Shown: positions 8,824 through 46,001 of the stretch, in pieces
How the letters are laid out: the number at the start of each line of letters is the position of its first letter
Position numbering within the stretch: the stretch's first letter is position 1
NCBI GenBank assembly: GCA_038259265.1
Contig: JBBSOY010000002.1
Location: 1-57,877 of the forward strand
DNA: 57,877 nt
Direction of reading: 5' to 3'
Origin: Minisyncoccia bacterium
GTDB taxonomy: Bacteria; Patescibacteriota; Minisyncoccia; Phycocordibacterales; DATGWK01
Notes under the pieces: generated by a model
Databases searched by the model: none
What the model saw: the letters and a program-made list of their open reading frames with translations, nothing else
Told to the model about the DNA's origin: nothing
Program-made: the position numbers and the translations under genes

Positions 8824-8926
8824 TGTAACATCATCGGATAGTGAGCCGAGTACGTTTACATCCCGTACAAACTCGACAGGTAACAAAGACGTACGTGAAG
8901 GTCGGCAGTGTTGTATAGTTATATGT

Positions 8927-10880: not shown

Positions 10881-11249
10881 ATGACCACTATTTTAATTAT
10901 TGAAGATGAGGCCGAGCTTTCGAATGCGCTCAAGGTTAAATTCGAGCGAGAAGATTTTGCGGTAAGTATTGCTGAAGACGGCGAAGATGGTTTGCGCATT
11001 GCGTTGGAAACCCATCCGGATCTGATCGTGCTCGATATAAATATGCCAAAAATGGACGGGCTCACCATGCTCAAACATCTCCGAAAAGACGAATGGGGCA
11101 GCAAAGTGCCGGTAATTCTCCTTACTAACAACGACAGTGTCGAAAAAATGGCCGATGCGGCGGAATTCGAGGCCCTCGAATACATTCTCAAGACAAAAAT
11201 AAAACTCGACGACCTTGTGTCGAATATAAAAAAAAGACTCCAAAAATAG
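10881..11249 (+). CDS. stand-alone response-regulator receiver domain (CheY-like)
   Basis: ILIIEDE...DLIVLDINMPKMDG...PVILLTN...K contains the conserved receiver acidic pocket and the Thr/Lys positions. Confidence 0.85.
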   Translation: MTTILIIEDEAELSNALKVKFEREDFAVSIAEDGEDGLRIALETHPDLIVLDINMPKMDGLTMLKHLRKDEWGSKVPVILLTNNDSVEKMADAAEFEALEYILKTKIKLDDLVSNIKKRLQK

Positions 11250-31009: not shown

Positions 31010-31070
31010 TAAAAAATAGTTCGAAAGAATTCGAGAGGAAATAAAATAGATACGCAGCAGATAGTGCATA

Positions 31071-31097
31071 AAAATCCGGTCTCAAGGCCGGGTTTTT
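31071..31097 (+). terminator. intrinsic terminator
   Basis: CCGGTC-tcaa-GGCCGG followed by GTTTTT. Confidence 0.45.
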
Positions 31098-31184
31098 GCG
31101 TACCGGTCCATTTGACAGCTTCACTGAGAAAGGTATTATATAGACATTACGCCGCAGGGCGTTTTTTGTTATAATAAAAAATAT

Positions 31185-31364
31185 ATGAAAGTCGCTGAAT
31201 ATCTCAAAGAAACAAAAGCCGAAATGAAGCATGTGAGCTGGCCCACCCGTCCGCAGGCCATCGCCTTTACCGCAATCGTTATCGCTGTGTCCTTGGTCGT
31301 AGCCGCATATCTTGGTTTGCTCGACTACATTTACACCTACATTATTTCTCATTTTTTGATTTAA
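31185..31364 (+). CDS. secE: preprotein translocase subunit SecE
   Basis: Hand-translated 59 aa: MKVAEYLKETKAEMKHVSWPTRPQAIAFTAIVIAVSLVVAAYLGLLD. It lies immediately upstream of nusG. An extended -10 (TGTTATAAT) sits at 31167-31175. Confidence 0.85.
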   Translation: MKVAEYLKETKAEMKHVSWPTRPQAIAFTAIVIAVSLVVAAYLGLLDYIYTYIISHFLI

Positions 31365-31367
31365 CCC

Positions 31368-31913
31368 ATGTCAAAACAAAAAATCCAGGAAGGACGCAAT
31401 TGGTATGCGATCCACACATATGCCGGCTATGAAAACGCAGTGATGCGAAATCTCAAACAGCGCATCGAGTCGCTCGGTATGGAGGGAAAAATTTTCAATG
31501 TCATTGTGCCGACCGAAAAAAAGATCAAGGTCAAAGGCGGGAAGCGTGTTGTCGAAGAAGAAAAAATTTACCCGGGCTACATTTTGGTTGATATGTCGGT
31601 GACAGACGATTCCTGGTACGTCGTTCGAAATACGCCTCGCGTGACCGGCTTTGTTGGGTCTGGTGTCTATCCAGTGCCCCTCAGTGCCCCTGAAGTCGAT
31701 GTATTGTTTGCCCGAATGAATACCGATTCAGCTCGACATATCATCGATCTTTCTGTCGGAGACGCGATTAAAATTTCTGACGGTCCATTTAAAGAGCTCG
31801 AAGGCAAGGTGAGCGAAGTCGACAGCGAACGAGGCAAGGTCAAGGTGCTTGTGGCCATGTTCGGCCGCGAAACACCCGTCGAGCTCGACTTCTTGCAAGT
31901 CAAGAAGATTTAA
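31368..31913 (+). CDS. nusG: transcription termination/antitermination factor NusG
   Basis: WYAIHTYAGYENAV... forms the NGN domain. The C-terminal KOW is GDAIKISDGPFKELEGKV. Confidence 0.9.
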   Translation: MSKQKIQEGRNWYAIHTYAGYENAVMRNLKQRIESLGMEGKIFNVIVPTEKKIKVKGGKRVVEEEKIYPGYILVDMSVTDDSWYVVRNTPRVTGFVGSGVYPVPLSAPEVDVLFARMNTDSARHIIDLSVGDAIKISDGPFKELEGKVSEVDSERGKVKVLVAMFGRETPVELDFLQVKKI

Positions 31914-31980
31914 GGTATCGTAACGACACTCAAAAAAGTAGTAAATAAACTCAAAAATCAAAAGCTCATAAAATACACGT

Positions 31981-32406
31981 ATGGCAAAAAAAGTCGTTAA
32001 AGAATTAAAAATGATCATCGCCGGCGGAAAAGCCGTCCCTGGTCAGCAACTCGGCCCCGTTCTCGGTGCTGCTGGTATCAACATCGGCGAATTCGTGAAG
32101 CGTTTTAACGCTGAAACCCAGACTCGTGTCGGCGAACTCGTTCCAACCGTTGTACAGGTATACGACGACCGAACCTACAAAATGGTCTACAAGACCGAAC
32201 CTGCAAGCCAGATGATTTTGAAGGCGATCGGTGGCGAAAAGGGTTCCGCGACTCCAAACACGAAAAAGGTTGGCAAAATCACCAAAGCTGCTATCAAAAC
32301 TATTGCTGAAAAGAAAATGCCTGACTTGAATGCGCATGACATCAACGGCGCCATTAAAATCGTCGAAGGTACCGCTCGTTCTATGGGTGTTGAGGTGAAG
32401 GGCTAA
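31981..32406 (+). CDS. rplK: 50S ribosomal protein L11
   Basis: KMIIAGGKAVPGQQLGPVLGAAGINIGEFVKRFN is the canonical uL11 N-terminus. Confidence 0.95.
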   Translation: MAKKVVKELKMIIAGGKAVPGQQLGPVLGAAGINIGEFVKRFNAETQTRVGELVPTVVQVYDDRTYKMVYKTEPASQMILKAIGGEKGSATPNTKKVGKITKAAIKTIAEKKMPDLNAHDINGAIKIVEGTARSMGVEVKG

Positions 32407-32410
32407 CATT

Positions 32411-32488
32411 AAAAAAACCACATCGTATATTTTCTCCGAGGCAGCCCAACCCGCAAGCCTCTCCGAAAACATACGATGTGGTTTTTTT
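32411..32488. terminator. long A7/T7-flanked hairpin (bidirectional terminator)
   Basis: A7-CCACATCGTATATTTTC ... GAAAACATACGATGTGG-T7, with 16 of 17 positions paired and an inner GAGGC/GCCTC stem. Confidence 0.7.
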
Positions 32489-32535
32489 GTTTAGGCTGCT
32501 GGGGTACAATGATGAACATCTAAATACTGAATGAT

Positions 32536-33654
32536 ATGAAATCCGCCCTCGCCCTCACTCCAAATCAAAAAGGCGCTCTTCCGCACCAGACAATTTTAAA
32601 AATGATTGAAGCCGGTTTTATTGTCGGCGCGGAGGCCAAAAATGTTCGGCCGGCGTCGCTCGACGTTTCGGTTTCCAGCGAAATTTATAAAGTCGAAGGC
32701 ATTTTTCAGCCGCGTGTTGGCGAAACCGTGCGCGATGTTCTGAAGCAAATTAAAAAAGTAAAATATTCGCTTGATAAACCGCTCATGCGGGATCAAATGT
32801 ATATTGCACGTTTGAACGAAACGCTTGATCTGCCAAAAACGGTCTATGCATTTTGCAATCCAAAATCGACGAGCGGGCGTGTTGATTTGCATGTGCGACT
32901 TCTTGCAGACGGCGTGCCGCGGTACGACATGGTTGCGCCCGCTGGCTACAAAGGCGAGCTGTGGATCGCCATCATGCCGAAAACTTTTCCTGTAAAACTT
33001 TTCGAAGGCATTAGCTTAAATCAACTTCGTTTTTTCAATGCTGACACGCGTTTGAACGAGCTTGAAATCGAGCTTGCGATGCGTCAGTTTAATTTGATCT
33101 GGAGCGCTCAGAAAGAAAAAGCTTATACATATGATGATCTAAAAATTAAAGACGGCGACGGTTCAGTCATTTTGACGATCGATCTTGAAGGTGACGTTTT
33201 AGGATACGAAAGTATTGAGGCGACCGCTGCCCTTGATCTTTCAAAGATTGCCCATTTCGATTCTAAAAAATTCTTCAAACCGGTGAAGCTTAAAAACGGT
33301 TATCTCTATTTGGAAAAAGGGAAGTTTTATATTCTTTCGACGAACGAAGCGGTGCGAGTGCCTCCGAGCTTGGCCTGTGAAATGGTTTCCATGGATGACC
33401 GCAGCGGCGAATTTCGTTCTCATTATGCGGGGTTTATCGACCCGGGATGGGGTTGGGGCGAAAAAGGCGAGGGTAAGGGTCGTCAGCTGACGCTCGAAGT
33501 TCGTCCGTTCGAGGATCTCATTATTCGGCATGGTCAGCCTATCGGAAAAATTCGTTTCGAAAAAATGACTGAAATTCCCGAGCTCGTCTACGATGCGACA
33601 TCTTCAAATTATATTAAACAAGTCGGTCCGAAATTAGCGAAGCATTTTAAGTAG
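32536..33654 (+). CDS. dcd: long-form 2'-deoxycytidine 5'-triphosphate deaminase-like protein
   Basis: 372 aa. The N-terminus ...GALPHQTILKMIEAGFIVGA and overall length fit the ~370-aa DCD family. The context (dut, thyX, tmk) supports the call. Confidence 0.55.
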   Translation: MKSALALTPNQKGALPHQTILKMIEAGFIVGAEAKNVRPASLDVSVSSEIYKVEGIFQPRVGETVRDVLKQIKKVKYSLDKPLMRDQMYIARLNETLDLPKTVYAFCNPKSTSGRVDLHVRLLADGVPRYDMVAPAGYKGELWIAIMPKTFPVKLFEGISLNQLRFFNADTRLNELEIELAMRQFNLIWSAQKEKAYTYDDLKIKDGDGSVILTIDLEGDVLGYESIEATAALDLSKIAHFDSKKFFKPVKLKNGYLYLEKGKFYILSTNEAVRVPPSLACEMVSMDDRSGEFRSHYAGFIDPGWGWGEKGEGKGRQLTLEVRPFEDLIIRHGQPIGKIRFEKMTEIPELVYDATSSNYIKQVGPKLAKHFK

Positions 33655-33716
33655 CGGACACATTCCTCCGTGGGTTGAAACAAGAATTTTGATGTAACTG
33701 TGTTGCACGAAATACG

Positions 33717-33745
33717 TTGACAAATAGGTATTTTAGGTGTATACT
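33717..33745 (+). promoter_or_regulatory. sigma70-type promoter of cassette 1
   Basis: TTGACA, a 17-nt spacer, then TATACT. Confidence 0.6.
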
Positions 33746-33779
33746 GGTTAAGTAGTTCTTTGATACCGATTTGCGAGTT

Positions 33780-33827
33780 GGTCATAGCGAAAAGCGGCTT
33801 ACAAATAGGCCTCTCCTCGCTATGACC
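33780..33827 (+). repeat. perfect 11-bp inverted repeat in the cassette-1 leader
   Basis: GGTCATAGCGA, 26 nt, then TCGCTATGACC. Absent from the shorter leader of cassette 2. Confidence 0.7.
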
Positions 33828-33885
33828 ATACCGGCCAATAGTGCCTCCTCGGCGTAGAGGGAAATCAAAATGAAAGGATGACACC

Positions 33886-34305
33886 ATGACACAGATCATG
33901 ACTGCAGCAGAAATCACTGACGGCCAAATCGAAAACGCCGTCAACAAACTCCGCGACGCGATGCGCAAGCATCGTTCCGAGATCACCTCGGATGTCGCCC
34001 AACAGGTTCTCGGGGTCGAGAACCTCGGAATGTTGATGTTCACTCCCTTCCGCGAACGCGCTGAAGCGGTCTCGAACCTCATCGTCCGCAAGGCCACAGT
34101 GAATCGCAGCCGCTTTCCGCAAGAGGCGCTCGAAGCCACTGGTCGCGCGCAGTACACGGACCGCAAGGTCGTGGACGCGATGCCGAAAGGTGAGGGCAAC
34201 GAAGCCGAGGTTGTGTTCTTCAAACCCGACCTCTCGAAGCGCAACGGTTTCATCTCCGATAACGACCTCGAAAAGGAGTTCGATCTCCGTCGCCGCCGTG
34301 AATGA
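33886..34305 (+). CDS. cassette 1, upstream ORF (139 aa, unknown family, GC3-rich)
   Basis: AAAGGA SD 8-10 nt upstream. Paralogous to 41586-41990 (shared ...QQVL..., ...QYT..VV..MP.GEG.E..VVFFKP...GF). Ends at TGA 34303-34305. Confidence 0.6.
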   Translation: MTQIMTAAEITDGQIENAVNKLRDAMRKHRSEITSDVAQQVLGVENLGMLMFTPFRERAEAVSNLIVRKATVNRSRFPQEALEATGRAQYTDRKVVDAMPKGEGNEAEVVFFKPDLSKRNGFISDNDLEKEFDLRRRRE

Positions 34306-34477
34306 AGCCGATCCCGCCTTCGCTGATGAGAAGCCCCACGGCACTCATTGGAAAGATGCCAAGGGCAACTGGTGCTACGCCACGTTCAACCGTTGGGACG
34401 ACAAGCGCGGGGTGTACGTCGACCGCAGCGGCCTCGGCTGGATCGACGGCCGGTGGTTCGCCGGTGTTCGCAAGTAG
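34298..34477 (+). CDS. cassette 1, Trp-rich C-terminal module encoded in the +1 frame
   Basis: ...NEADPAFADEKPHGTHWKDAKGNWCYATFNRWDDKRGVYVDRSGLGWIDGRWFAGVRK is conserved with copy 2, and the differences are synonymous in this frame. The only candidate start is GTG 34298, which lacks an SD. The frame is open from 34190. Confidence 0.5.
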   Translation: MNEADPAFADEKPHGTHWKDAKGNWCYATFNRWDDKRGVYVDRSGLGWIDGRWFAGVRK

Positions 34478-34538
34478 TTCTCAACACTAAGCCACTTAGG
34501 ACTCCGGTCCTTAGAAATGTCCTTCATACTTAGTCCTT

Positions 34539-34575
34539 AGCCCTGTTCCGATTCGTCGGAGCGGGGCTAATTTTT
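34539..34575. terminator. intrinsic terminator (shared with convergent thyX)
   Basis: AGCCCTGTTCCGA-ttcg-TCGGAGCGGGGCT followed by AATTTTT. Confidence 0.7.
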
Positions 34576-35956
34576 ATTTCTGCACAATATCGTGTTCGCC
34601 GCGCTTGATGTCGAAACGGTCTGGGTCGCTGTCGAGATGAATGATGAGGCCCTGATTTTTAAATGTCGTGCCAATCGTATGTGCCATTTGAATCGCGCGT
34701 TTGCGAAGAGTCGTGTGAACGAAACGAGTTGAGCGAAGTTCGGCCAAATAGACAAGCGAATGAAGGGCACCAGTAATTCGGTTTGGCAGTTTGTAACCCA
34801 TCGGGATGTAGTACTGCAACTCTTCTTTTGAAACAGTTGAACCGTCGGATTTTTTAGATTTTTTGAGGCTCTCAATTTTCTTTTTTTGATCAGCGATAAA
34901 AGCAATAGCTTCGCCTCGAAATTTTTCTGGCAGTTCATTTAAATACCATTCTTCAAAACCGTGGCTCATGACAATGAGTGGCATGCGCTGGTTCACTGCT
35001 CGATGACGCTGAATGTCTCGAAAAGAACCGAAGTCGAGAAGAAATTCAAACTGCAGAGTGCCGCATTCGGCGAGTTCTTTTGGGAGCTCGGTTTTTGCTT
35101 TTCGTTCGAGCAAATGGTTTTTATATGTGGCAAGAGTTTTTGTATCGATATCGTTTCGGCTTACTTGGAAATCAACCGCAGCATCGTTGGTGTGATAATA
35201 CAAATCGTTCATCCAATTTTTATTGAAATTTTCAGTCGTTTCAAAACGGGGGTGGCCGAAAGAACTTGGATAGGCTTTTTTGAGCGCGGTTTCAATGACA
35301 TCGGCAACCTGACGAACTTCGGCGAGGGGATGATGTCGCAAACGCATGAGATGGTCCGCTGCCTGACGGAAGTTTGCATGCCAAGCAAGGTTGGTCGAAG
35401 CGCCCGACGGCAAAAAGCCGCGCATGATGTCGAAGGCGCGGGCCTTGATTGCTTTGAGGTAAATTTTTTCGTCCTCATTTTCGCTTCGAGGAAAACGAAT
35501 CTGAAGGTCGGCAATTAAAATTTCGAGGCCGCGCAAATAAAAAGCTCGCCATGATTCCAAAACTTCCGCAGACTCGGCCATGCCGATGGGATCAATAAAC
35601 GCCTGCTTGGCGAAGTCGATGTACCGGGTTGAGGCTTCCTGACCAGAATACAGAGGGAAATCCTGAATGGCCTTGGCGACAAGCATCGAAACACCTTCAA
35701 CAAAAATCGTACCGGTGCCGCAATCGCCAATCGACTTATGTCCGTAGCCCACATAAAAATTGGCCATGAAATTGTCCGAGCCTTTTGCGGCTAAAACTTT
35801 CAAATGACTTTTGATACCGCCGATCGAGCGGGAATGAAGGGCCTGTAGCATCGCCTCGGATTCTGGGCCAATCTGAGCGCCCGTATTTAAAATGAAGACA
35901 AAACCGCCGTTTGGAAGAGGAATTTCGGTGTGAACGATCGATTCGATGTTGCTCAT
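34574..35956 (-). CDS. thyX: long-form FAD-dependent thymidylate synthase (ThyX-like, fused pseudo-dimer)
   Basis: 460 aa. The first half has a ...SGQEASTRYIDF segment (resembling S-x-x-Q-x-S-Q-R-Y). The second half has FRDIQRHRAVNQR (RHR motif). It is flanked by glyA, tmk and dut. Confidence 0.55.
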   Translation of the reverse strand: MSNIESIVHTEIPLPNGGFVFILNTGAQIGPESEAMLQALHSRSIGGIKSHLKVLAAKGSDNFMANFYVGYGHKSIGDCGTGTIFVEGVSMLVAKAIQDFPLYSGQEASTRYIDFAKQAFIDPIGMAESAEVLESWRAFYLRGLEILIADLQIRFPRSENEDEKIYLKAIKARAFDIMRGFLPSGASTNLAWHANFRQAADHLMRLRHHPLAEVRQVADVIETALKKAYPSSFGHPRFETTENFNKNWMNDLYYHTNDAAVDFQVSRNDIDTKTLATYKNHLLERKAKTELPKELAECGTLQFEFLLDFGSFRDIQRHRAVNQRMPLIVMSHGFEEWYLNELPEKFRGEAIAFIADQKKKIESLKKSKKSDGSTVSKEELQYYIPMGYKLPNRITGALHSLVYLAELRSTRFVHTTLRKRAIQMAHTIGTTFKNQGLIIHLDSDPDRFDIKRGEHDIVQK

Positions 35957-36113
35957 TTTTTGTCTGATTTATGTACGAAGTTACACTAATGATCGCGGTT
36001 TGCGGATTGTGTGGTGTGACTTGGTATTGGTTTGTAAATGAAGTGGCTTTATTCTACTATAAGCTAGAAAATAAAGACTAAGCAAAAAACCTATCCCGAA
36101 TAATCTATCCTGA

Positions 36114-37310
36114 ATGAAAGCCATGAAAGCCATGAAAGACACTGAAATTTCCAAACTTATCAAAACCGAGCAGGCTCGTCAGAAAAAAGTCATCAATCTG
36201 ATCGCTTCGGAAAATTATGTTTCGGCGGACGTGCTTTCGGCGCTTGGTTCCGAACTCACGAACAAATATGCCGAAGGATATCCGGCGCATCGTTACTATG
36301 GCGGCAATGAAATTTCAGACAAAATCGAAATGCTTTGCCAAAAGCGAGCCCTTAAACTTTTTGGATTGAATGCAAAAGAATGGCATGTAAACGTTCAGGC
36401 ACTTTCTGGGTCGCCCGCAAATCTCGCGGTGTATGTCGCTTTGGTTTCGCCGCACGGAAAAATCATGGGCATGTCGCTCGACCAAGGCGGGCATTTGACC
36501 CACGGCCACAAAGTTTCAGCGACTGGTAAATTTTGGAATCAGATTCCGTATGGTGTGGACCGCAACACTGAAGTCCTCGATTACGAAGAAGTAAAAAAGA
36601 TTGCGCTTGAACATAAGCCAAATATTATCGTCGCTGGTTTCACTGCGTATCCTCGTGAAGTTGATTTTAAAAAGTTCCGGGAAATCGCCGATGCGTGCGG
36701 GGCATTTTTAATGGTCGACATGTCGCACGTGGCTGGGCTTGTAGCTGGTGGGGTATACCAGAGTCCCTTTGCATACGCAGATATTGTGACCACAACCGTG
36801 CACAAAACATTGCGGGGTCCACGAAGCGCCCTTATTTTTGCTCGAAAAGACGCTCGCGAGCTCGACCGAAAAATCGACAAAGCTGTTTTCCCCGGTCTTC
36901 AGGGCGGTCCTCATTTAAATCAAATTGCTGCCGTTGCGGTTGCTCTTAAAGAAGCGGCAACTCCAGCTTTCAAAAAATATGCGAAACAAGTTGTGAAAAA
37001 TGCCCAGGCGATGGCTGGTGAATTGCAGCGGCTTGGTTGGAAAATTATTTCCGGCGGCACGGATACGCACTTGATCCTTATGGATACCTGGATGAAAGAT
37101 AAGGGGCTGCCTGGCAAAGATGCGAGCGATCGTTTGGAGAAAGCGGGGATTATTGTGAATAAAAATACGATTCCATACGAAACTCGTTCGCCGTTTGATC
37201 CTTCCGGAATTCGCCTCGGCACCGCCGCAGAAACGACTCGCGGCCGCAAAGAAAAAGACATGATCGCTATTGCCAGAAAAATCGACGCAGTGTTACGAAA
37301 AAATAAATAA
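36114..37310 (+). CDS. glyA: serine hydroxymethyltransferase
   Basis: LIASENYVS...YAEGYP..RYYGG...HLTHGH...TTTVHKTLRGPR are canonical SHMT motifs including the PLP lysine. Three in-frame ATGs lie at 36114, 36123 and 36132. Confidence 0.95.
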   Translation: MKAMKAMKDTEISKLIKTEQARQKKVINLIASENYVSADVLSALGSELTNKYAEGYPAHRYYGGNEISDKIEMLCQKRALKLFGLNAKEWHVNVQALSGSPANLAVYVALVSPHGKIMGMSLDQGGHLTHGHKVSATGKFWNQIPYGVDRNTEVLDYEEVKKIALEHKPNIIVAGFTAYPREVDFKKFREIADACGAFLMVDMSHVAGLVAGGVYQSPFAYADIVTTTVHKTLRGPRSALIFARKDARELDRKIDKAVFPGLQGGPHLNQIAAVAVALKEAATPAFKKYAKQVVKNAQAMAGELQRLGWKIISGGTDTHLILMDTWMKDKGLPGKDASDRLEKAGIIVNKNTIPYETRSPFDPSGIRLGTAAETTRGRKEKDMIAIARKIDAVLRKNK

Positions 37311-37360
37311 TGAAAAATCGCATATACAATTAAGTCCACTACCATTTAAATAAAATAAGA

Positions 37361-38116
37361 ATGCCTGAAAAAAAATCTTCAACATCTGTAACATCAATCG
37401 TTTCGAAAAATGCGAGCAAGCCTAAAAAAGGAAAACTGATCGTCATCGACGGTATCGATGGTTCGGGAAAGGCGACTCAGGTTCGGCTGCTAGCGGAGCG
37501 GCTCAAAAAAGCCGGGGTGAAAATTAAAACCATTGATTTTCCTCGATATGGCGAAAATTTTTTCGGTACGCTTATTGGCGAATATTTGACCGGTGTGTAC
37601 GGAGATTTTATTGCTATGGATCCGCGTGTAGCTTCGGTTTTGTATGCGGGTGATCGCTTCGAGTCGAGCAAAAAAATTCGCCAGTGGTTGGATGACGGCT
37701 ATACCGTTCTTGCTGATCGTTATGTGAGTGCCAACCAAATTCATCAGGGTGGAAAAATTGATGATCCAAAACAAAGAAAAGATTTTTTGACTTGGCTCGA
37801 TCGCATGGAACATTCGGTTTTCGGAATCCCTCGACCAGATCTCGTTATCTACCTCGACGTGCCGTTTGAAGTCAGCAAAGAATGGTTGCAGGGCAAAATT
37901 GCTCAGCGCAAGAAATCATATTTGAAAGGAAAAAAAGACATTGCCGAAGACAACTTATTGCATCTTGAAAACTCTCGAAATGGCGCGCTCTATATGGCAA
38001 AAAACTATAAAAACTGGACGAAAATTGCCTGCTGTGACGGCATGGTCTGCATGCTGCCCGAACAGGTCCACGAAGAAGTTTTCAAAATTGTGAAAGGGAA
38101 GCTGAAAATCAAATAG
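37361..38116 (+). CDS. tmk: dTMP kinase
   Basis: LIVIDGIDGSGKATQ is the P-loop and ADRY is the DRY/H motif. It has an N-terminal ~25-aa Ser/Lys extension. Confidence 0.85.
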   Translation: MPEKKSSTSVTSIVSKNASKPKKGKLIVIDGIDGSGKATQVRLLAERLKKAGVKIKTIDFPRYGENFFGTLIGEYLTGVYGDFIAMDPRVASVLYAGDRFESSKKIRQWLDDGYTVLADRYVSANQIHQGGKIDDPKQRKDFLTWLDRMEHSVFGIPRPDLVIYLDVPFEVSKEWLQGKIAQRKKSYLKGKKDIAEDNLLHLENSRNGALYMAKNYKNWTKIACCDGMVCMLPEQVHEEVFKIVKGKLKIK

Positions 38117-38158
38117 TTGGCCGACCCCATAGTTCTCAAAGTTCAGTATAATTTACGT

Positions 38159-38587
38159 ATGTCTCTCACACTCAAAATCATCCGACTCGATAAAGATCTG
38201 CCAATGCCAACGTACTCATATCCTGGCGATGCAGCGTTTGATCTGACTGCAAGCGAAAAAATAACGCTTTTACCTGGCGAACGAGTGCAGATAAAAACGG
38301 GTTTAAAAATGGAAATTCCAGAGGGGTTTGTTGGCTTCATCTGGGATAAAAGTGGGCTGTCGCATAAATCTGGCCTCAAAACGCTCGGTGGCGTGGTTGA
38401 TTCTGGTTACAGAGGTGAAGTCATGGTTGGTATTATCAATCTTTCAAAAGATTCGTATATTTTCGAAAGGGGCAATAAGGTGGCTCAAATGTGTATTCAG
38501 AAAAAGGAAGTGGTAAATATCGTTGAAGTTGATGAAATTTCGGATACGGTACGTGGCTCGGGAGGATTTGGAAGCACCGGAAAATAG
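38159..38587 (+). CDS. dut: dUTP diphosphatase
   Basis: YPGDAAFDL, GVVDSGYRGE and the C-terminal RGSGGFGSTG are dUTPase motifs 1, 3 and 5. The start is taken at ATG 38159. Confidence 0.9.
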   Translation: MSLTLKIIRLDKDLPMPTYSYPGDAAFDLTASEKITLLPGERVQIKTGLKMEIPEGFVGFIWDKSGLSHKSGLKTLGGVVDSGYRGEVMVGIINLSKDSYIFERGNKVAQMCIQKKEVVNIVEVDEISDTVRGSGGFGSTGK

Positions 38588-38604
38588 GGGATAATATACA
38601 GAAG

Positions 38605-40353
38605 ATGAAAAATATCCGAGAAATAATTGCAGATGAGTTCAAAAAAATCGGCCTGGAAGTTTTGCCGGCTGATTTGGATTTGCCTAAAAATCTCGCAAAT
38701 GGCGATTTTTCTATTTTTATAAAAGATACAGCTGTCGATCCTTTAAAACTGCCGCTCGAAAAGATTTCAGGAGCAGAGACTCAATCGAACGAGCAAGCGC
38801 ATGAATACATTCAGTCAATTGAAGTTGCTGGTCGCTTTTTAAATATTCGTTTATCACCAAAATTTTTTGCAGATGTACTCAAAGAAAATCTTGCGTCCGG
38901 AGCGGCTGGGGTTGGATTTGGCCGAAATCAAAATCTCGCTGGCCAAAAAATTCTTATTGAATACACTGACCCGAATCCGTTTAAAGAACTCCATATCGGC
39001 CACATGATGAGCAATACGATTGGTGAATCGCTCTCGAGAATCATCGAATGGAATGGTGCGGATATTGTGCGTGCGTGTTATCAGGGCGATGTTGGGCCGC
39101 ATATTGCTAAGGCGATCTGGGGCATACAAAAGCTGGCGGCTGAACGACCAGCTGAAGAAAAAACCTTGGCTGAAAAAAGTGCTTTCATTGGCAACTCGTA
39201 TGTTGCTGGTTCTGCTGCGTATGAAGACGATTCAGAATCAAAAAAAGAAATCGATGTCATCAACAAAGCGATCTATGAAAAAACGGATTCGGAAATAAAC
39301 GACCTCTATACGTGGGGCAGAAAAGTCAGCCTCGATCGTTTTGAAGAAATTTACAAAAAGCTCGGCACCAAATTCGACTATTATTTTTTCGAAAGCGAAA
39401 CGGCGCCGCTCGGACTTTTTATTGTTGATGAACTTTTGGGTAAGGGAATTTTGGAAAAGAGCGACGGTGCGATTGTGTTTAAGGGTGAAAACTATGGTTT
39501 GCATACTCGAGTCTTTGTAAATTCCCAAGGCTTGCCGACCTACGAGACAAAAGAGCTCGGCCTCACGAAAATGAAGTTTGATCGGATCAATCCAGATCAG
39601 TCTATTGTCATTACCGGCAACGAACAAACTGATTATTATAAAGTCATCGTTAAAATTCTCGAATTCTACGACCATCGAGCAGGGAATCGCACGCGTCACA
39701 TTGGTCACGGCATGCTTCGTTTTGCTGAAGGAAAAATGTCGTCTCGAAAAGGCAACGTCGTGACCGGCGAATCGCTCATTGCTGATGTTGAAAAACGGGT
39801 TGCGGAAAAAATTCAGGAAAGAGATTTTTCTGCAGAAGACAAAGCTACAATCGCCGAAATTGTCGCTATTGCTGCCATTAAATATTCAATCCTCAAGCAA
39901 GCACCCGGCCGCGACATTATTTTTGATTTTGAAAAGTCACTTTCTTTTGAAGGTGACTCTGGTCCGTACCTTCAGTACACCCACGCTCGTATCTGCTCGA
40001 TCCTCCGAAAAGCCGAAGAAGAGGGAATTGTGGCGTCTGTTGGTGGTGTTATTGAAGATTCACAAAATGCCCCGAACTCTGCAAGTTTCGTCGAAGAGCC
40101 TGGCGAACTTGAGCATTTACTTATCCGAATGCCAGACGTTGTTGAACGAGCTCAAAAAGAATTAGCGCCACAGCTCATCGTGACGTACGTTACCCAGCTT
40201 GCTTCAGCTTTCAATTCGTACTACGCAAACAACACGATCCTCTGTGACGACAAAGATATTTCTGCGTACCGTGTCGCCCTTGCTTCAGCTGTGAAAAATG
40301 CTCTTGCGAGTGGTCTCTATCTCCTCGGCATCAAAGCGCCGCAGCGAATGTAG
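38605..40353 (+). CDS. argS: arginine--tRNA ligase
   Basis: PNPFKELHIGHM (HIGH) and a C-terminal ...YLLGIKAPQRM ending. 582 aa. Confidence 0.9.
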   Translation: MKNIREIIADEFKKIGLEVLPADLDLPKNLANGDFSIFIKDTAVDPLKLPLEKISGAETQSNEQAHEYIQSIEVAGRFLNIRLSPKFFADVLKENLASGAAGVGFGRNQNLAGQKILIEYTDPNPFKELHIGHMMSNTIGESLSRIIEWNGADIVRACYQGDVGPHIAKAIWGIQKLAAERPAEEKTLAEKSAFIGNSYVAGSAAYEDDSESKKEIDVINKAIYEKTDSEINDLYTWGRKVSLDRFEEIYKKLGTKFDYYFFESETAPLGLFIVDELLGKGILEKSDGAIVFKGENYGLHTRVFVNSQGLPTYETKELGLTKMKFDRINPDQSIVITGNEQTDYYKVIVKILEFYDHRAGNRTRHIGHGMLRFAEGKMSSRKGNVVTGESLIADVEKRVAEKIQERDFSAEDKATIAEIVAIAAIKYSILKQAPGRDIIFDFEKSLSFEGDSGPYLQYTHARICSILRKAEEEGIVASVGGVIEDSQNAPNSASFVEEPGELEHLLIRMPDVVERAQKELAPQLIVTYVTQLASAFNSYYANNTILCDDKDISAYRVALASAVKNALASGLYLLGIKAPQRM

Positions 40354-40467
40354 AATTTCACTAAAATATGAACGTTATTCACCCAATGCCAGAAGAACAA
40401 GTTATTCCATTTTGTATTTGAGGAAAACTTTATTTTTTCATGAATTGTGCTTCAGTACTTTTTATTG

Positions 40468-40998
40468 ATGTCAAAAAAAGAAGTTGTTGAAGGCACCGTT
40501 AATCCAGAAATTATTAAGGAAAAGATTTATATCGTTCGTGGTAAAAAAGTAATGGTTGATCGCGATTTAGCAATATTATACGAAGTTCCTACAAAGGCAC
40601 TTAATCAGGCAGTCAAAAGAAATTTAAAAAGATTTCCACCAGATTTCATGTTCAGATTGACCACTGAGGAAGAAGAATATGTGCGGTCACAATTTGTGAC
40701 CGCACATGCGAATAAAAACAGAGCCCGGGTTTCTGCCTTTACCGAACAAGGCATTGCTATGCTTTCAAGTGTACTTAAGAGCGAAAGGGCCATCGCTGTA
40801 AATATTCAGATCATAAGAATTTTCACCAAGATTCGGGAGATGGTCGATGCGTATAAAGAATTGCGAGAAAAAGTCGAAGAAATGGAGAAAAATAATGAGA
40901 CAAATTTCTCAGAGATATTCAGGATAATTCGCCACCTGATTCATGAAGAAAACACGCAAAATGATATAATTGGATTTAATACCAAAAATAATAATTAA
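40468..40998 (+). CDS. ORF6N (KilA-N-related) DNA-binding domain protein
   Basis: KIYIVRGKKVMVDRDLAILYEVPTKALNQAVKRNLKRFPPDFMFRLT...AFTEQGIAMLSSVLKSERA is the typical ORF6N signature. Confidence 0.8.
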   Translation: MSKKEVVEGTVNPEIIKEKIYIVRGKKVMVDRDLAILYEVPTKALNQAVKRNLKRFPPDFMFRLTTEEEEYVRSQFVTAHANKNRARVSAFTEQGIAMLSSVLKSERAIAVNIQIIRIFTKIREMVDAYKELREKVEEMEKNNETNFSEIFRIIRHLIHEENTQNDIIGFNTKNNN

Positions 40999-41001
40999 TC
41001 T

Positions 41002-41478
41002 ATGCGACACGCTACAAATTGTTTTCTCATCGATGACGAAAAAGGCACGATTCTGCTTTCGATGAAAAAGCGCGGTTTAGGGGTGGGAAAATGGAATGGA
41101 GCGGGTGGCAAAGTAGCTGAAGGTGAGACTGCACTCAAAACCGCGGCCAGGGAAGTGAAAGAAGAAATCGGCGTGGCGGTCAAAGCTGATGATTTGGAAA
41201 AAGTTGCCGAAATTATCTACACCAATCCCGATCCGAACTGGGGTATGAGCGTCGACGTTTTTATTGCCCGCAACTGGCGTGGCACACCGGAAGAAAGCGA
41301 AGAAATGAAACCCGAATGGTTTGAGCTTGAAGAAGTTCCGTATGGCCAAGCCTGGCCTGACCTCGTTCACTGGCTGCCGCGGCTGCTCGTTGGCGAAAAA
41401 CTCAAGGCAAATTTTGTATACAAAGAAGACGGCGAATTGCTCGATACGTTCGAGGTCGCAGTCGTGGATGGGTTCTAA
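41002..41478 (+). CDS. NUDIX hydrolase (MutT-like)
   Basis: Nudix box GGKVAEGETALKTAAREVKEEIGV. It starts 3 nt after the ORF6N stop. Confidence 0.8.
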   Translation: MRHATNCFLIDDEKGTILLSMKKRGLGVGKWNGAGGKVAEGETALKTAAREVKEEIGVAVKADDLEKVAEIIYTNPDPNWGMSVDVFIARNWRGTPEESEEMKPEWFELEEVPYGQAWPDLVHWLPRLLVGEKLKANFVYKEDGELLDTFEVAVVDGF

Positions 41479-41481
41479 CTA

Positions 41482-41510
41482 TTGACTTTTTATATAAAAT
41501 AAAGTTTAAT
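41482..41510 (+). promoter_or_regulatory. sigma70-type promoter of cassette 2
   Basis: TTGACT, a 17-nt spacer, then TTTAAT (or TAATAT at 19 nt). Confidence 0.45.
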
Positions 41511-41585
41511 ATACAAAGAATTCTTTGACCGCGAACTGTTCGTGGTTTTAGTAATCAGTGTTTTTTTCAAAAGGAGGATGACGCA

Positions 41586-41990
41586 ATGGTATCAAAAACC
41601 AGGACCCCATCAGAATGTATTAGCGCAGGACAGATTGGTCAGATCCAGGATCGGATCGGTACCGCTCTCCGAATGAGCGGTCTCCATAACGATCAGGTTC
41701 AACAAGTTCTCCAGACAAAGGGCCGAGGAGACCGGATGATCGAAGATATGATCACTGTGGTCCGCAAGTTCGTTGAGGCAAGGGCGAGCGAGATCGTCCG
41801 TCGGGTCAAGGTGGATCGCACTCTTCAACCCAAGGAGATGCTCGACGCTCTCGGTCGGAAACAGTACACCAATAAGGACGTGGTCAATACCATGCCCCGA
41901 GGCGAAGGTGAGGAAGTCGATGTCGTCTTCTTTAAGCCCGAGCCGGAGGAGTACACTCGGCCTGGCTTCATGAGCGGAACCGGATCATGA
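41586..41990 (+). CDS. cassette 2, upstream ORF (134 aa, paralogue of 33886-34305)
   Basis: Strong SD AAGGAGG. Conserved blocks shared with copy 1. Ends at TGA 41988-41990. Confidence 0.6.
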   Translation: MVSKTRTPSECISAGQIGQIQDRIGTALRMSGLHNDQVQQVLQTKGRGDRMIEDMITVVRKFVEARASEIVRRVKVDRTLQPKEMLDALGRKQYTNKDVVNTMPRGEGEEVDVVFFKPEPEEYTRPGFMSGTGS

Positions 41991-42219
41991 CAAAGCCCTC
42001 GAGCGCCGTAGCCTCAAGCCCGACCCCTATGCCCAAGCCCAGGCTAACAAGGAAGATCCTGCTTTCGCAGATGAGCGCCCCAACTGCAGTCAATGGAAGG
42101 ATGGTGACTCCTACCGCTTCGCCACGTTCAACCGTTGGCGCGGCAAGCGCGAGGTGAACGTCAACCGCGACGACTACGACTGGAGCGACGGCTGGTGGTT
42201 GTCCGGTGTTCCCAAGTAG
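41974..42219 (+). CDS. cassette 2, linker plus Trp-rich C-terminal module in the +1 frame (no start codon)
   Basis: AEPDHDKALERRSLKPDPYAQAQANKEDPAFADERPNCSQWKDGDSYRFATFNRWRGKREVNVNRDDYDWSDGWWLSGVPK. There is no ATG, GTG or TTG anywhere before the conserved block. The frame opens right after a TGA at 41971. Confidence 0.5.
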   Translation, partial: AEPDHDKALERRSLKPDPYAQAQANKEDPAFADERPNCSQWKDGDSYRFATFNRWRGKREVNVNRDDYDWSDGWWLSGVPK

Positions 42220-42311
42220 TTCTTGGGACTTTGTCACTGAGGTCTTTTGGACCCTTTGTTCTTAGTCCTTCGGCGATTTTCGCCACACGTATTCCAAACG
42301 TAAACAATGGA

Positions 42312-42337
42312 AGCCTCGATTTCGGTCGGGGCTTTTT
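42312..42337 (+). terminator. intrinsic terminator of cassette 2
   Basis: AGCCTCGA-tttcgg-TCGGGGCT followed by TTTTT. Confidence 0.6.
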
Positions 42338-42361
42338 CTTTGTCTGCTTTCTACCGCTCTT

Positions 42362-42390
42362 TTGCCAAAGTGCTTCAAAAACTGTACTAT
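42362..42390 (+). promoter_or_regulatory. candidate ileS promoter
   Basis: TTGCCA, a 17-nt spacer, then TACTAT, 11 nt before ATG 42402. Confidence 0.5.
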
Positions 42391-42401
42391 TCGAGCTACT
42401 T

Positions 42402-45400
42402 ATGGCTGATATCCATACTAAAACTCCTACAAAAAGCCCCGTCGCTTTGGCAGAAGAACAGGTCTTGGCCTTTTGGCGCGAGAAAAATGTGTTTCAAAAG
42501 ACGCTCGACAAAGCGGCGCCGAACGGCAACTATGTTTTTTATGACGGTCCGCCGTTTGCGACTGGTTTGCCGCATTACGGCCACATTTTAATTAGCGCAA
42601 TCAAAGACGCTGTGCCGCGTTACCAAACGATGTGCGGCAAGCATGTTGAACGCCGCTGGGGTTGGGATTGTCATGGTTTGCCGATCGAAAATATTGTTGA
42701 AAAAGATCTGAAAGTTTCTGGCAAAAAAGAAATCGAAGCGCTCGACATCGATGTCTTCAACGAATACGCTCGCAGCCGCGTGCTCGACTTCGCCGATCAT
42801 TGGAAAACGACAATCGAACGCATCGGCCGCTGGGTTGACTATGATGGTGGCTATAAAACGATGGACAACACATTCATCGAATCCGTCTGGTGGGGGCTCA
42901 AAAATATTTGGGATAAAAATTTAATTTACGAAGGCACGAAAGTTTTGCCGTATTGCCCACGCTGCGAAACGCCAATTTCTAATTCGGAAATTGCTATGGA
43001 TGGATCGTACAAAGACATCACTGACATTTCGGTTTATGTAAAACTCGCGCTCGTCGATGAACCGAAAACTTTTCTAATTGTTTGGACGACAACGCCTTGG
43101 ACTTTGCCTGGCAACACTGCTGCGGCCGTAAACGCCGAGCTCGACTACGTTCTCGTAAAATCGGGCGACGAATATTTTATTGTCGCAAAAGACAAGACAA
43201 GTATTTTTAAAGAAAAGTTTGAGATTGTCGAAGAAATGAAGGGAAGTGAGCTTGTCGGTAAAAAGTTCAAGCCGCCGTTTGATTATTTTGAAAACAAGCC
43301 GCTGCCGGGAAAAGAAAACGAAACGAATCGCGAAAATGCCTGGAAGGTATACGCCGCGCCGTACGTTACTGCCGAAGCCGGTTCCGGTATCGTTCATTTG
43401 GCGCCTGCGTACGGCGAAGAAGACATGGCGCTCGCTCGCCAGTTCAACATTCCGTTCATTCGTCACGTCGGTTCGGATGGAAAATTTACGACAGACGTTA
43501 CAGACTTTGTTGGTCTTAAGGCAAAACCAAAAGAAGATCATCAGTCGTCTGATGTGCAGATAATCAAAAACCTCGCGGCTCGTGGTGTGCTTTTTGCAAA
43601 AGAAAAAATTATCCATTCATATCCACATTGTTACCGCTGCGAAACACCGCTTTTCTATTTCGCAATTCCTGCGTGGTTTATCAAAATCCAGGACGTCAAA
43701 AAGGAACTCATAAAAAATAACGAAGACATTACCTGGATTCCTGAGCATTTGAAGCATGGCCGTTTTGGCAAAACCATGGAAGGTGCGCCGGACTGGAATA
43801 TTTCTCGCAATCGTTACTGGGCATCGCCCTTGCCGTTTTGGAAGTGTGACCATTGCGCCGAAACCCTTTGCATTAGCTCGCTCGAGGATATTAAAAAACA
43901 TGCACCAGCTCGAAACACCTATGTGGTCATGCGTCATGGCGAAGCGGAGCACAACCTGACCGACACGGTGAGTTGTCTCGTCACCGACAAAAATGGTTTG
44001 ACCGAAAAGGGTAGAAAAGAAGTGACCGAATCAGCGAAAAAACTCGCAGCAAATCAGGTGGCTGAAGGCGAGGCTTCGTCGAAAGAAAAAGTCAGTTTTA
44101 TTTATGCATCAGATTTAGTCCGAGCAAAAGAAACGGCGGAAATTGTTGCTGCTGAGCTTGGTTTGTCTTCGGACAAAATCGTCTACCTTCCAGATCTCGG
44201 CGAACTTCGGGCAGGAATTTACAACGGCAAAACCTGGACGGAATATCGAAAGTCGTTTGCGAAACCTGAAGATCGTTTTGAAAAAGCACCCGAGGGCGGC
44301 GAAACACTCACCGACATGCGTAACCGCGTTGTAAAAACGCTTTACGATATCGAGCAAAAACATGCCGGCGAAAACATTCTCATCATCAGTCACGGCGAAA
44401 ATATTTTCTTTTTGGAGAATGCCACAGGCGGCGCTTCGAAACAGGATCTGATTTATTCATTTATTCATAAATCAGAATTCCTCGGTACTGGCCAGTCTCG
44501 GCCGCTTGATTTCGCTCCAATTCCGCACAATAAAAATTTCGAACTCGATTTTCATCGACCGTATATCGATGAAATAGTTTTTGCGTGCCAGGGAGCGGGA
44601 GGAAATTCTGGCAGTGGGGCAGGGTCGGGCAAATGCGGAGGCACCATGCGACGTATCCCCGAAGTCGTCGACTGTTGGCTTGAATCTGCTTCCATGCCAT
44701 TTGCTCAAAACCATTATCCGTTCGAACACAAAGAACGATTTGAGAAAAACTTTCCGGCGGATTTTGTAGCCGAATATATTTCCCAGACTCGAACCTGGTT
44801 TTATTATATGCATGCAATTTCGACCATCCTTTTCCAAAAAGCACCATTCAAACATGTGCTGACCACGGGCATCATTGTCGCGGAAGATGGGGAAAAAATG
44901 TCGAAGTCGAAAGGTAATTTCCCCGACCCTCAGCGTTTGTTCGACAAATATGGCGTTGATGCGCTCCGTTTTTACATGCTCAGTTCGCCGCTTGTGAAAT
45001 CTGAAGATCTGAGCTTCACTGAAAAAGGCGTCGACGAAGTCTATAAAAAAATAATCCTCCGCCTCAAAAATACGCTGACTTTTTACGAAACGTATCGCGG
45101 CGAGAGTCGCAAGACAGAAGATCGACTCGTTTCAAAGCATGTGCTCGATCGCTGGATCATCGAACGCATGAACCAGGTGATTTCTGAAGTGACCACCAAC
45201 ATGGAAGCCTATGTGCTCGATCGTGCGCTTTTTGAAATTGACGGGTTTATCGAAGATCTGTCCGTGTGGTTTTTGCGTCGTTCGCGAGAGCGTCTCAAAA
45301 GCGAAAACGAAATCGAACGCAACGAAGCACTCGATACATTTTATTGCGTGCTCGTAGATTTGGCGAAAATTATGGCGCCTTTTACGCCTTTTTTGGCCGA

Positions 45401-46001
45401 ACAGCTATACGCAGCGCTCGATGCTCATGCGGACGGTGGCACAGAAAGTGTTCATTTGGAAGAATGGCCGGATTCGCGCCTTACGCCGGTTGAAGACGTC
45501 GTTATTTTGTCTGACATGATGGAAACTCGTCGCATCGTCAGTCTTGCGCTCGAAGCTCGTGCGAAAGCGAAAATAAAAGTCCGTCAGCCGCTTGCGAAAC
45601 TTGTGGTGAAAACGACGACCCTCGAAAACAAACAAGAATATCTCGATTTAATTCGCGACGAAGTGAACGTCAAAGAAATCGAATTTGATACAGAAATTGT
45701 CGACGAAGTCGTGCTCGATACCGACATCACTCCAGCTTTGCAGGAAGAGGGAAATGTCCGCGAGCTCGTTCGAGCGATGCAGGATCAACGAAAGAAAGCA
45801 GGTTTGAAGGCCGGCGACCAGGCCGAAATTTCTGTTCGAGCAAACGAAATGGGTAAAACATTTATTTTAAAATTTGAATCAGAACTTAAAAAATCCGCAC
45901 TTCTTTCGAACATTATTTTCACCGAAGAAAAACATGTCGAAACCGACGAAACTATTTCAATCGAAGGTATGGAATTTGTGTTTAGAATTAACGGGAATTA
46001 A
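42402..46001 (+). CDS. ileS: isoleucine--tRNA ligase with inserted histidine-phosphatase domain
   Basis: PPFATGLPHYGHIL (HIGH), KMSKS, DWNISRNRYW, DFHRPYIDE and CGGTMRRIPEVVDCW. The start is at MADIHTK (42402); the ORF-track extension back to 42135 overlaps cassette 2. See the finding for the insertion. Confidence 0.9.
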   Translation: MADIHTKTPTKSPVALAEEQVLAFWREKNVFQKTLDKAAPNGNYVFYDGPPFATGLPHYGHILISAIKDAVPRYQTMCGKHVERRWGWDCHGLPIENIVEKDLKVSGKKEIEALDIDVFNEYARSRVLDFADHWKTTIERIGRWVDYDGGYKTMDNTFIESVWWGLKNIWDKNLIYEGTKVLPYCPRCETPISNSEIAMDGSYKDITDISVYVKLALVDEPKTFLIVWTTTPWTLPGNTAAAVNAELDYVLVKSGDEYFIVAKDKTSIFKEKFEIVEEMKGSELVGKKFKPPFDYFENKPLPGKENETNRENAWKVYAAPYVTAEAGSGIVHLAPAYGEEDMALARQFNIPFIRHVGSDGKFTTDVTDFVGLKAKPKEDHQSSDVQIIKNLAARGVLFAKEKIIHSYPHCYRCETPLFYFAIPAWFIKIQDVKKELIKNNEDITWIPEHLKHGRFGKTMEGAPDWNISRNRYWASPLPFWKCDHCAETLCISSLEDIKKHAPARNTYVVMRHGEAEHNLTDTVSCLVTDKNGLTEKGRKEVTESAKKLAANQVAEGEASSKEKVSFIYASDLVRAKETAEIVAAELGLSSDKIVYLPDLGELRAGIYNGKTWTEYRKSFAKPEDRFEKAPEGGETLTDMRNRVVKTLYDIEQKHAGENILIISHGENIFFLENATGGASKQDLIYSFIHKSEFLGTGQSRPLDFAPIPHNKNFELDFHRPYIDEIVFACQGAGGNSGSGAGSGKCGGTMRRIPEVVDCWLESASMPFAQNHYPFEHKERFEKNFPADFVAEYISQTRTWFYYMHAISTILFQKAPFKHVLTTGIIVAEDGEKMSKSKGNFPDPQRLFDKYGVDALRFYMLSSPLVKSEDLSFTEKGVDEVYKKIILRLKNTLTFYETYRGESRKTEDRLVSKHVLDRWIIERMNQVISEVTTNMEAYVLDRALFEIDGFIEDLSVWFLRRSRERLKSENEIERNEALDTFYCVLVDLAKIMAPFTPFLAEQLYAALDAHADGGTESVHLEEWPDSRLTPVEDVVILSDMMETRRIVSLALEARAKAKIKVRQPLAKLVVKTTTLENKQEYLDLIRDEVNVKEIEFDTEIVDEVVLDTDITPALQEEGNVRELVRAMQDQRKKAGLKAGDQAEISVRANEMGKTFILKFESELKKSALLSNIIFTEEKHVETDETISIEGMEFVFRINGN

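Follow-up and report, generated by a model that had tools for sequence, protein, structure and literature searches.

A stretch of 57,877 nucleotides (nt) from a Minisyncoccia bacterium (assembly GCA_038259265.1, contig JBBSOY010000002.1, positions 1 to 57,877 of the forward strand; hereafter the window) carries two paralogous genes, here called copy 1 and copy 2, each of which is interrupted and continues in the +1 frame. By homology, both genes are targets of diversity-generating retroelements (DGRs), in which an error-prone reverse transcriptase alters the end of a gene, and the interruptions are best explained as two independent and ordinary inactivating insertions or deletions (indels) in a stretch that lacks the retroelement cassette. 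We conclude that the two copies are most likely young pseudogenes and not cases of recoding, both of which had been offered as explanations in an earlier note made from the sequence alone.

Both copies are interrupted by short indels

Open reading frames (ORFs) and frame junctions were read from three-frame translation. Copy 1 begins with a zero-frame ORF (33886 to 34305, plus strand) of 139 amino acids that ends at TGA, encodes family residues 1 to 132 followed by out-of-frame residues, and matches positions 1 to 136 of a hidden Markov model (HMM) of the family; the product is 84 to 86% identical to intact orthologues of 206 amino acids. The remainder of copy 1 (ISVAAVNEADPAFADE...WFAGVRK) is in the +1 frame at 34283 to 34477 on the plus strand, with a TAG at 34475 to 34477, and matches HMM positions 143 to 207. 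Copy 2 has a zero-frame ORF of 134 amino acids that also ends at TGA (41586 to 41990, plus strand; HMM positions 2 to 125) and a +1-frame remainder (AEPDHDKALERR...WWLSGVPK; 41974 to 42219, plus strand; TAG at 42217 to 42219; HMM positions 128 to 207), and its two frames overlap by only 17 nt, ending at the TGA. When joined across the frame changes, the copy 1 and copy 2 proteins share 41% identity from end to end (E = 2e-45). The family HMM matched only the four pieces of copies 1 and 2 in the window, and thus the paralogy and both interruptions are real, as the earlier note had proposed.

To locate the lesion in copy 1, the gene was aligned with its closest orthologue, at locus L001 (protein P0002, 206 amino acids; 94% nucleotide identity), and the sole indel was a 29-nt gap in the window. 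At the site, L001 reads CGATCTGCGT GGCCTCAAGCCCGCTGACC CGATCTCCGT, the deleted stretch being bracketed by CGATCTGCGT and CGATCTCCGT. The flanks of the deletion are imperfect 10-nt direct repeats (CGATCTsCGT), of which the window retains one, CGATCTCCGT, at 34281 to 34290 on the plus strand, leaving the remainder in the +1 frame. The junction is at 34281/34282, where the sequence reads GAG TTC (34279-81), G (34282), ATC TCC GTC, and is thus about 7 to 19 nt upstream of the interval 34288 to 34300 in which the change had earlier been placed; the zero-frame "DLR" on which that alignment relied is a product of the surviving direct repeat. The earlier estimate of roughly ten missing codons held, as the deletion takes out ten conserved codons (segment DLRGLKPADP), including five columns (R, G, L, D, and P) conserved at 87 to 97%. 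From the sequence at the junction, the 29-nt loss looks like a slipped-strand or microhomology-mediated deletion.

Copy 2 was compared with the orthologues at L002 (74% amino-acid identity) and L003 (66%). Copy 2 has GG at 41976 to 41977 (plus strand) where both orthologues have one G, a 1-nt insertion that shifts the gene to the +1 frame at the place near 41976 where the change had been predicted. The insertion was also found in a separate assembly: Logan contig L004 (SRR24807092) corresponds to window positions 39898 to 44796 (4899 nt) at 99.98% identity, with one mismatch and no gap, contains the extra G, and encodes an identical 134-amino-acid copy 2 product.

Both remainders lie in the +1 frame because -29 and +1 are each congruent to +1 modulo 3, and the products are similar in length because an out-of-frame TGA comes within 4 to 7 codons of each lesion. 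Lesions in the same direction have a probability of about 1/2, and lesions within about 8 aligned codons of a gene of about 206 codons have a probability of about 0.08, such that the coincidence of direction and place, being post hoc, is weak. The stronger anomaly is that both window copies are broken, compared to none of about 86 other copies split in this segment. Elsewhere in the window, long ORFs are densely packed with short gaps between them and no other gene is broken, making general indel error unlikely.

Homologues are mostly intact and many adjoin a retroelement cassette

The family was surveyed with its HMM in other Patescibacteria, giving about 86 other gene copies at 83 loci, and all of them (~86/~86) cross the interrupted segment in a single frame. 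The gene is thus uninterrupted in its relatives, a result that the earlier note had named as counting against recoding. At E <= 1e-3, the joined queries matched 629 and 80 protein clusters. Among the 200 matches listed, most were about 200 to 216 amino acids long with 96 to 100% coverage of the joined queries, and only the two products of the window and P0197 ended at this segment. P0197 (locus L087) is cut just after the conserved DPYA motif, with no variable domain in any frame. In four further copies (L014, L017a, L028, and L031), HMM matches ended inside the variable region, and a frame change in L017a (P0097) was read from the protein sequence. Broken copies elsewhere are sporadic, amount to about 5%, and are broken at differing places, which is the pattern of mutation and not that of a programmed site.

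Scans of the joined proteins against Pfam and NCBIfam returned no family, and the source names and record titles of the matches place the family in Paceibacterota/Parcubacteria, i.e., Patescibacteria. Targets of DGRs in the candidate phyla radiation (CPR) usually lack recognizable conserved domains (Roux et al. 2021, PMC8144416; Wu et al. 2018, PMC5758913). Locus L003 is syntenic with the copy 2 neighborhood (SHMT-dUTPase-ArgRS-NUDIX-target-IleRS), and between its target and IleRS genes lie a 60-amino-acid antisense ORF, a bAvd gene, and an RVT_1 reverse transcriptase. The 60-amino-acid ORF is an artifact that arises because the 3' end of the target is repeated there. The L003 repeat (11006 to 11103) differs from the end of the gene (10529 to 10626) by 10 mismatches, 10/10 of which fall at repeat adenines.

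Template repeats and cassettes were surveyed in 80 species-representative loci. A repeat-like copy was found 330 to 400 nt 3' of the target in about half of them, and at most of these a minus-strand Avd gene and then a plus-strand reverse transcriptase gene come next; Avd and/or reverse transcriptase lay directly 3' of the target in about 45/80. In 43 homologous repeat pairs, 642 of 668 mismatches (96%) were at template adenines. Moreover, the copy 1 orthologues at L006, L007, L009, L010, and L012 have the cassette directly downstream. Because of the adenine-specific repeat mismatches and the Avd/reverse transcriptase cassette in homologous loci, copies 1 and 2 are, as judged from homology, variable-protein targets of Patescibacteria DGRs. 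The earlier description of an unrecognized gene family was thus wrong in kind, yet no Pfam or NCBIfam model covers these genes.

We note that at five loci with intact targets (L035, L042, L051, L065, and L083), tblastn matches to reverse transcriptase 3' of the target span only about 100 codons, which suggests that decayed cassettes may be common in this group.

The variable regions resemble a template that the window lacks

The variable regions (VRs) of the two copies were scored against the template repeat of L006 (TGCTACGCCACGTTCAACCGTTGGAACGACAAG...), a heterologous repeat of the copy 1 type that comes from another species and is not the window's own. VR1 of copy 1 (34373 to 34473, plus strand) and the L006 and L009 template repeat could be aligned along 101 nt, and 13 of 14 mismatches were at template adenines, with one at T. 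That sole non-adenine change, TGG to CGG, gives W190R at a Trp conserved at 97%, and the last 23 nt of VR1 match the L006 template exactly. For VR2 of copy 2 (42116 to 42215, plus strand), the alignment with the L006 repeat spans 100 nt and has 10 of 13 mismatches at template adenines, and all three non-adenine changes, counted against the template of that other species, lie within its last 17 nt. Compared to the template of L003, its own syntenic orthologue, VR2 has 19 non-adenine mismatches, against 3 with L006. A single template like that of L006 thus seems to have served for both VR1 and VR2, though the gene bodies are only 41% identical.

No reverse transcriptase or Avd (tblastn with the L003 proteins) and no third repeat (blastn with both VRs) was found elsewhere in the 57,877-nt window, and the two targets are accordingly without a cognate template, reverse transcriptase, and Avd within it. 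At the site of the cassette, L003 (10631 to 12542) has about 1.75 kb of template repeat, Avd, and reverse transcriptase between the terminator and IleRS, where the window has only about 65 nt. At this one site, then, the cassette is cleanly present in L003 and cleanly absent from the window.

About 25 to 35 nt beyond each VR is a short G+C-rich hairpin with a 4-nt loop, at 34509 to 34522 (AGGAC-TCCG-GTCCT) and 42241 to 42253 (GGTC-TTTT-GGACC), in 3' sequence whose conservation extends to L003. The two hairpins recall one that, reportedly in work by Guo and colleagues from 2011, is required for target recognition in the Bordetella phage DGR. DGR homing was considered as a cause of the lesions and was rejected, as the lesions lie about 90 to 140 nt upstream of the start of template homology.

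In intact relatives, the template repeat about 330 to 400 nt 3' of the gene would be copied by the Avd/reverse transcriptase pair with errors at adenines, and the mutated copy would overwrite the last 100 nt or so of a target gene of about 206 to 210 amino acids. In the window, copy 1 would have lost 29 nt between imperfect 10-nt repeats and copy 2 would have gained one G, and the truncated products, lacking the variable C-terminal domain, would represent null alleles or young pseudogenes. The copy 1 lesion would be very recent and the copy 2 lesion somewhat older, with a likely common cause in a diversification system that was lost or is no longer selected in the lineage. That both copies are hit here, compared to at most about 5% broken elsewhere, suggests such a shared cause, and the simplest candidate is that selection on the entire diversification system was relaxed.

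Copy 2 carries rare residues after its lesion, and copy 1 is little changed

Rare residues of copy 2, defined as those seen in at most 1 of 76 relatives, occupied 6 of 34 conserved columns after the shift and 0 of 28 upstream (Fisher p = 0.03). The rare residues after the shift include L134H, F205L, A206S, and R209P, of which the last three are the three non-adenine changes of VR2. They fall in the 3' end of the VR, which does not normally vary and must be identical to the template for homing to occur, and template homing should in principle have removed changes of that type. Between copy 2 and L002, window-specific and L002-specific replacements numbered 6:1 downstream and 11:5 upstream, a relative-rate difference that is suggestive only.

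Nonsynonymous-to-synonymous rate ratios (dN/dS) were calculated for copy 1 against nine orthologues. The N-terminal part gave 0.16 to 0.30, and the variable region gave values above 1, as expected of a DGR target. In the 28 non-variable codons after the shift, eight of the nine comparisons had zero nonsynonymous changes and that with L008 had one, while synonymous changes numbered 2 to 11. The lack of divergence after the shift indicates that the copy 1 deletion is younger than the split from L001, with recent decay and continued use giving the same result. The dN/dS per module that the earlier note had called for was therefore uninformative for copy 1, the lesion being younger than the nearest-orthologue split; for copy 2, the relative-rate comparison gave the suggestive trend above. 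The suggestion of parallel pseudogenes that retain their signals is supported: the orthologues are in a single frame, the lesions are ordinary indels, a promoter-like site is present for copy 1 and terminator- and Shine-Dalgarno (SD)-like motifs for both copies, and the excess of rare replacements in copy 2 is confined to the part after its shift.

The lesions fall within a compact predicted fold

AlphaFold2 models were made of intact P0002 (206 amino acids) and of P0178, which corresponds to the C-terminal part (128 amino acids). The P0002 model forms one compact fold with a predicted local distance difference test (pLDDT) score of 92.9 and a predicted template modeling (pTM) score of 0.83, and the P0178 model has a pLDDT of 92.2; pTM across both models was 0.83 to 0.84. 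At the interrupted segment, the P0002 model has a helix (125 to 134), a strand (137 to 139), and a second helix (142 to 151). The segment had been described as an inter-domain linker, but it is no loose one, as it has residues conserved at 87 to 97% and is a helix-strand-helix in a model of pLDDT 93. Naturally short members of the family (P0155, P0160, P0178, P0186, P0192, and P0195) have the C-terminal variable domain and are missing the three helices at the N terminus. The conserved core of the family is thus the variable domain, which is absent from the fragments in the window.

Foldseek searches with the full-length and C-terminal models found no match in the Protein Data Bank (PDB) or BFVD at E <= 1e-3, the query-normalized TM-score of the listed matches never exceeded 0.24, and a profile search of PDB sequences gave chance matches only. 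Solved C-type-lectin DGR variable proteins were not matched by Foldseek for either model. By our reading, a minimal lectin-like fold could have the order of elements seen in the model (strand, two helices, four strands). Going by the models, the family may have either a highly divergent version of the lectin fold or another scaffold for DGR diversification.

Alternative explanations

Several observations weigh against young pseudogenes in a lineage that lost its diversification system. About 35/80 intact homologues are likewise without an adjacent cassette, and loss of the cassette genome-wide is beyond the reach of a 58-kb window and cannot be shown from it. Promoter- and terminator-like signals are intact, and neither downstream frame has closed, each of them encoding the conserved domain. 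The constraint on copy 1 after the shift fits a very recent lesion and also fits continued selection on the +1 frame. The copy 1 deletion was not recovered in a second assembly, as Logan contig L085 (SRR24807092) corresponds to window positions 31044 to 34262 and ends 19 nt before the junction. Finally, two lesions within about 8 aligned codons in one genome are a mild coincidence. The rivals, from the most to the least likely, are an assembly artifact or minor variant, a selected truncation, and programmed recoding.

One way in which intact genes could appear broken is if the population is mostly intact and the assembler took a rare path, chiefly in copy 1, a possibility that we consider unlikely. 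DGR target loci are heterogeneous in populations. The end of L085 just short of the copy 1 junction and the absence of any match to a 30-mer across that junction in the JGI metagenome collection would fit such an artifact, as would the four other species representatives in which HMM matches end in the variable region, which could be assembly effects. The copy 1 truncated product, in a 135- or a 139-amino-acid version, matched no record either. The next Logan contig found downstream of the junction begins at about 34957; the Logan assembly of SRR24807092 is broken every 3 to 5 kb anyway, however, so that a break near the junction is not diagnostic. Moreover, the extra G of copy 2 is present in an independent assembly that is gap-free over 4899 nt, neither lesion is in the hypervariable part, and the rest of the window contains no broken genes. 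At 29 nt, the deletion between the 10-nt repeats is below the length of assembler k-mers and would be typical of replication slippage.

Selection could instead have favored the 139- and 134-amino-acid fragments, either as short proteins or as a switch-off, for example, of a protein exploited by a phage or host. The cutting of both copies at nearly the same aligned position, against 0/~86 others, would be accounted for in that case, as would the retention of expression signals and an N-terminal dN/dS of 0.16 to 0.30, though the latter mostly records history before the lesions. Natural short members, however, are shortened at the other end, and the cut falls inside the helix-strand-helix of a fold that is compact in the model, such that the fragments would lack half of its core. 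Furthermore, only P0197 among the listed matches ends nearby, with its C-terminal part gone, and no family of short forms accompanies it. We regard a selected truncation as quite unlikely, and give a similarly low probability to the related idea that the interruptions are not neutral decay and that selection has led both copies, convergently, to shed or switch off the variable domain at the same structural boundary, with or without low +1 read-through that would still provide some full-length protein. If the latter were true, a lineage without the retroelement would be keeping only the N-terminal halves of its former targets.

The remaining alternative is that programmed +1 frameshifting or another form of recoding gives a full-length and a short protein, as in prfB or dnaX, such that the short form or the short/long pair is the selected state. 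Recoding would account for open downstream frames, for the +1 requirement of both copies, and for the mere 17-nt frame overlap of copy 2 that ends at TGA. None of the orthologues at 83 other loci is split here, however, and the copy 1 "site" is a deletion that removes conserved codons as well. The P-site codons before the stops (GAA in CGU GAA UGA of copy 1 and UCA in GGA UCA UGA of copy 2) cannot re-pair in the +1 frame, and the expected SD-like element about 3 nt upstream is missing, those closest to the stops being at 34273 and 41945, i.e., 26 and 40 nt away. Neither frame overlap has an in-phase slippery heptamer or a homopolymer of at least 5, the only heptamer (AAACCCG, 34222) being out of phase and upstream of the junction, and no sequence is common to both sites. 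A dnaX-type shift is -1 and would restore neither frame. With no common motif, no slippery sequence, no conserved frameshift, and natural short forms that drop the N terminus, recoding is exceedingly improbable. Separate starts for the downstream modules were rejected as well: the +1 frame of copy 2 has no ATG, GTG, or TTG before V190, and the sole candidate in copy 1 is a GTG at 34298, 20 nt from the nearest GGAG. We conclude that independent inactivation of two DGR targets by ordinary indels is the most probable explanation.

Expression signals and genomic context

A promoter-like site precedes copy 1 at 33717 to 33745 on the plus strand (TTGACA-17-TATACT, 11/12 consensus matches), and the orthologous loci L007 and L010 have it too. 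The resulting leader of about 140 nt contains a long conserved hairpin (GGTCATAGCGA...TCGCTATGACC; 33779 to 33828, plus strand), for which RNAalifold predicted 20 pairs in eight orthologous leaders, a few of them with compensatory changes. The hairpin is kept in L005, L006, L007, L009, L010, and L013 and matched no Rfam family; an Rfam scan of the whole window likewise gave no match at gathering scores. SD-like motifs were read by eye 5' of the start codons of both copies. Downstream of copy 1 is a terminator-like hairpin (34537 to 34570, plus strand) of 15 pairs followed by a T run. Copy 2 is followed by a conserved 3' untranslated stretch (42220 to 42402, plus strand) with a terminator-like hairpin at 42309 to 42336 and then about 65 nt to the IleRS start.

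In the window, the site 3' of copy 1 is occupied by the convergent thyX gene. The copy 1 orthologue in L001 is flanked by a DNA ligase gene and gatC, a neighborhood quite unlike that in the window despite 94% nucleotide identity. G+C content is 59.6% in copy 1 (33886 to 34477) and 56.8% in copy 2 (41586 to 42219), compared to 46.2% in the window. The context of L001 and the G+C content suggest that the family gene may move between loci or genomes. Horizontal acquisition, which the earlier note had called probable, is on these grounds (57 to 60% G+C against 46%, and a 94%-identical orthologue in another context) plausible only.

The IleRS gene downstream of copy 2 (window positions 42403 to 46001) has a histidine-phosphatase (His_Phos_1) domain inserted in the middle of the synthetase, as does the L003 IleRS (1217 amino acids). 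Between ArgRS and NUDIX, the window has an ORF6N-domain gene (40447 to 40998) and L003 has a small ORF and a Fic-domain gene (8762 to 9365). The ArgRS-NUDIX slot is a variable cargo position beside the DGR target.

Discussion

We find that two ORFs that are easily misannotated are most likely disrupted DGR target genes, and a candidate recoding site is thereby removed. The window also provides a small case study in which DGR targets without an adjacent cassette keep adenine-type VRs and begin to gather non-adenine changes and frameshifts. The family is large (>600 clusters), and its confident predicted fold, unmatched among solved structures, may be of interest for the question of whether DGRs diversify only proteins with a C-type lectin fold. 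In mechanism, there is nothing remarkable about the case. No description of frameshifted DGR targets beside a missing cassette was found in the DGR papers cited here (PMC8144416, PMC5758913, and PMC3521204).

The two copies resemble prfB (+1) and dnaX (-1) in that a short product runs to a stop and the downstream frame encodes the rest. In contrast to those systems, the window sites lack a shift-prone codon, an SD sequence at the right spacing, and a slippery heptamer, the interruption is unconserved, and the direction is wrong for dnaX. The closer likeness is to DGR clade 2 of Patescibacteria/CPR, a clade restricted to Patescibacteria (PMC8144416; CPR DGRs, PMC5758913), whose targets match in being small cellular proteins with no recognizable transmembrane or other domain. 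Patescibacteria targets and the window copies are alike in that the VR comprises the last 100 nt or so, mismatches are adenine specific, and the cassette is downstream in relatives. The window copies differ in that no cassette lies within 58 kb, that both are frameshifted upstream of the VR, that the two targets fit one template type, and that the predicted fold has no C-type lectin match.

In the TvpA system of Treponema denticola, a single template repeat serves several targets, which are located apart from the reverse transcriptase gene. The window targets are similar in fitting one template type and in being distant from a reverse transcriptase, but the template with which they were compared is that of another species. 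The C-type lectin fold solved for TvpA is unmatched by the models of the window family. Non-adjacent and remote targets, including those of the Treponema DGR, have been described (Wu et al. 2018, PMC5758913).

Inactivated DGRs provide a further comparison, as DGR reverse transcriptases have been found cut by a frameshift, a nonsense mutation, or an insertion element while the repeats remain intact (Schillinger et al. 2012, PMC3521204). The window copies are like these in recent inactivation by ordinary mutation with repeats that still look intact, and in both, non-adenine changes in the VR mark inactivity. In contrast to the inactivated DGRs, it is the targets and not the reverse transcriptase that are broken in the window, and the cassette is missing rather than mutated.

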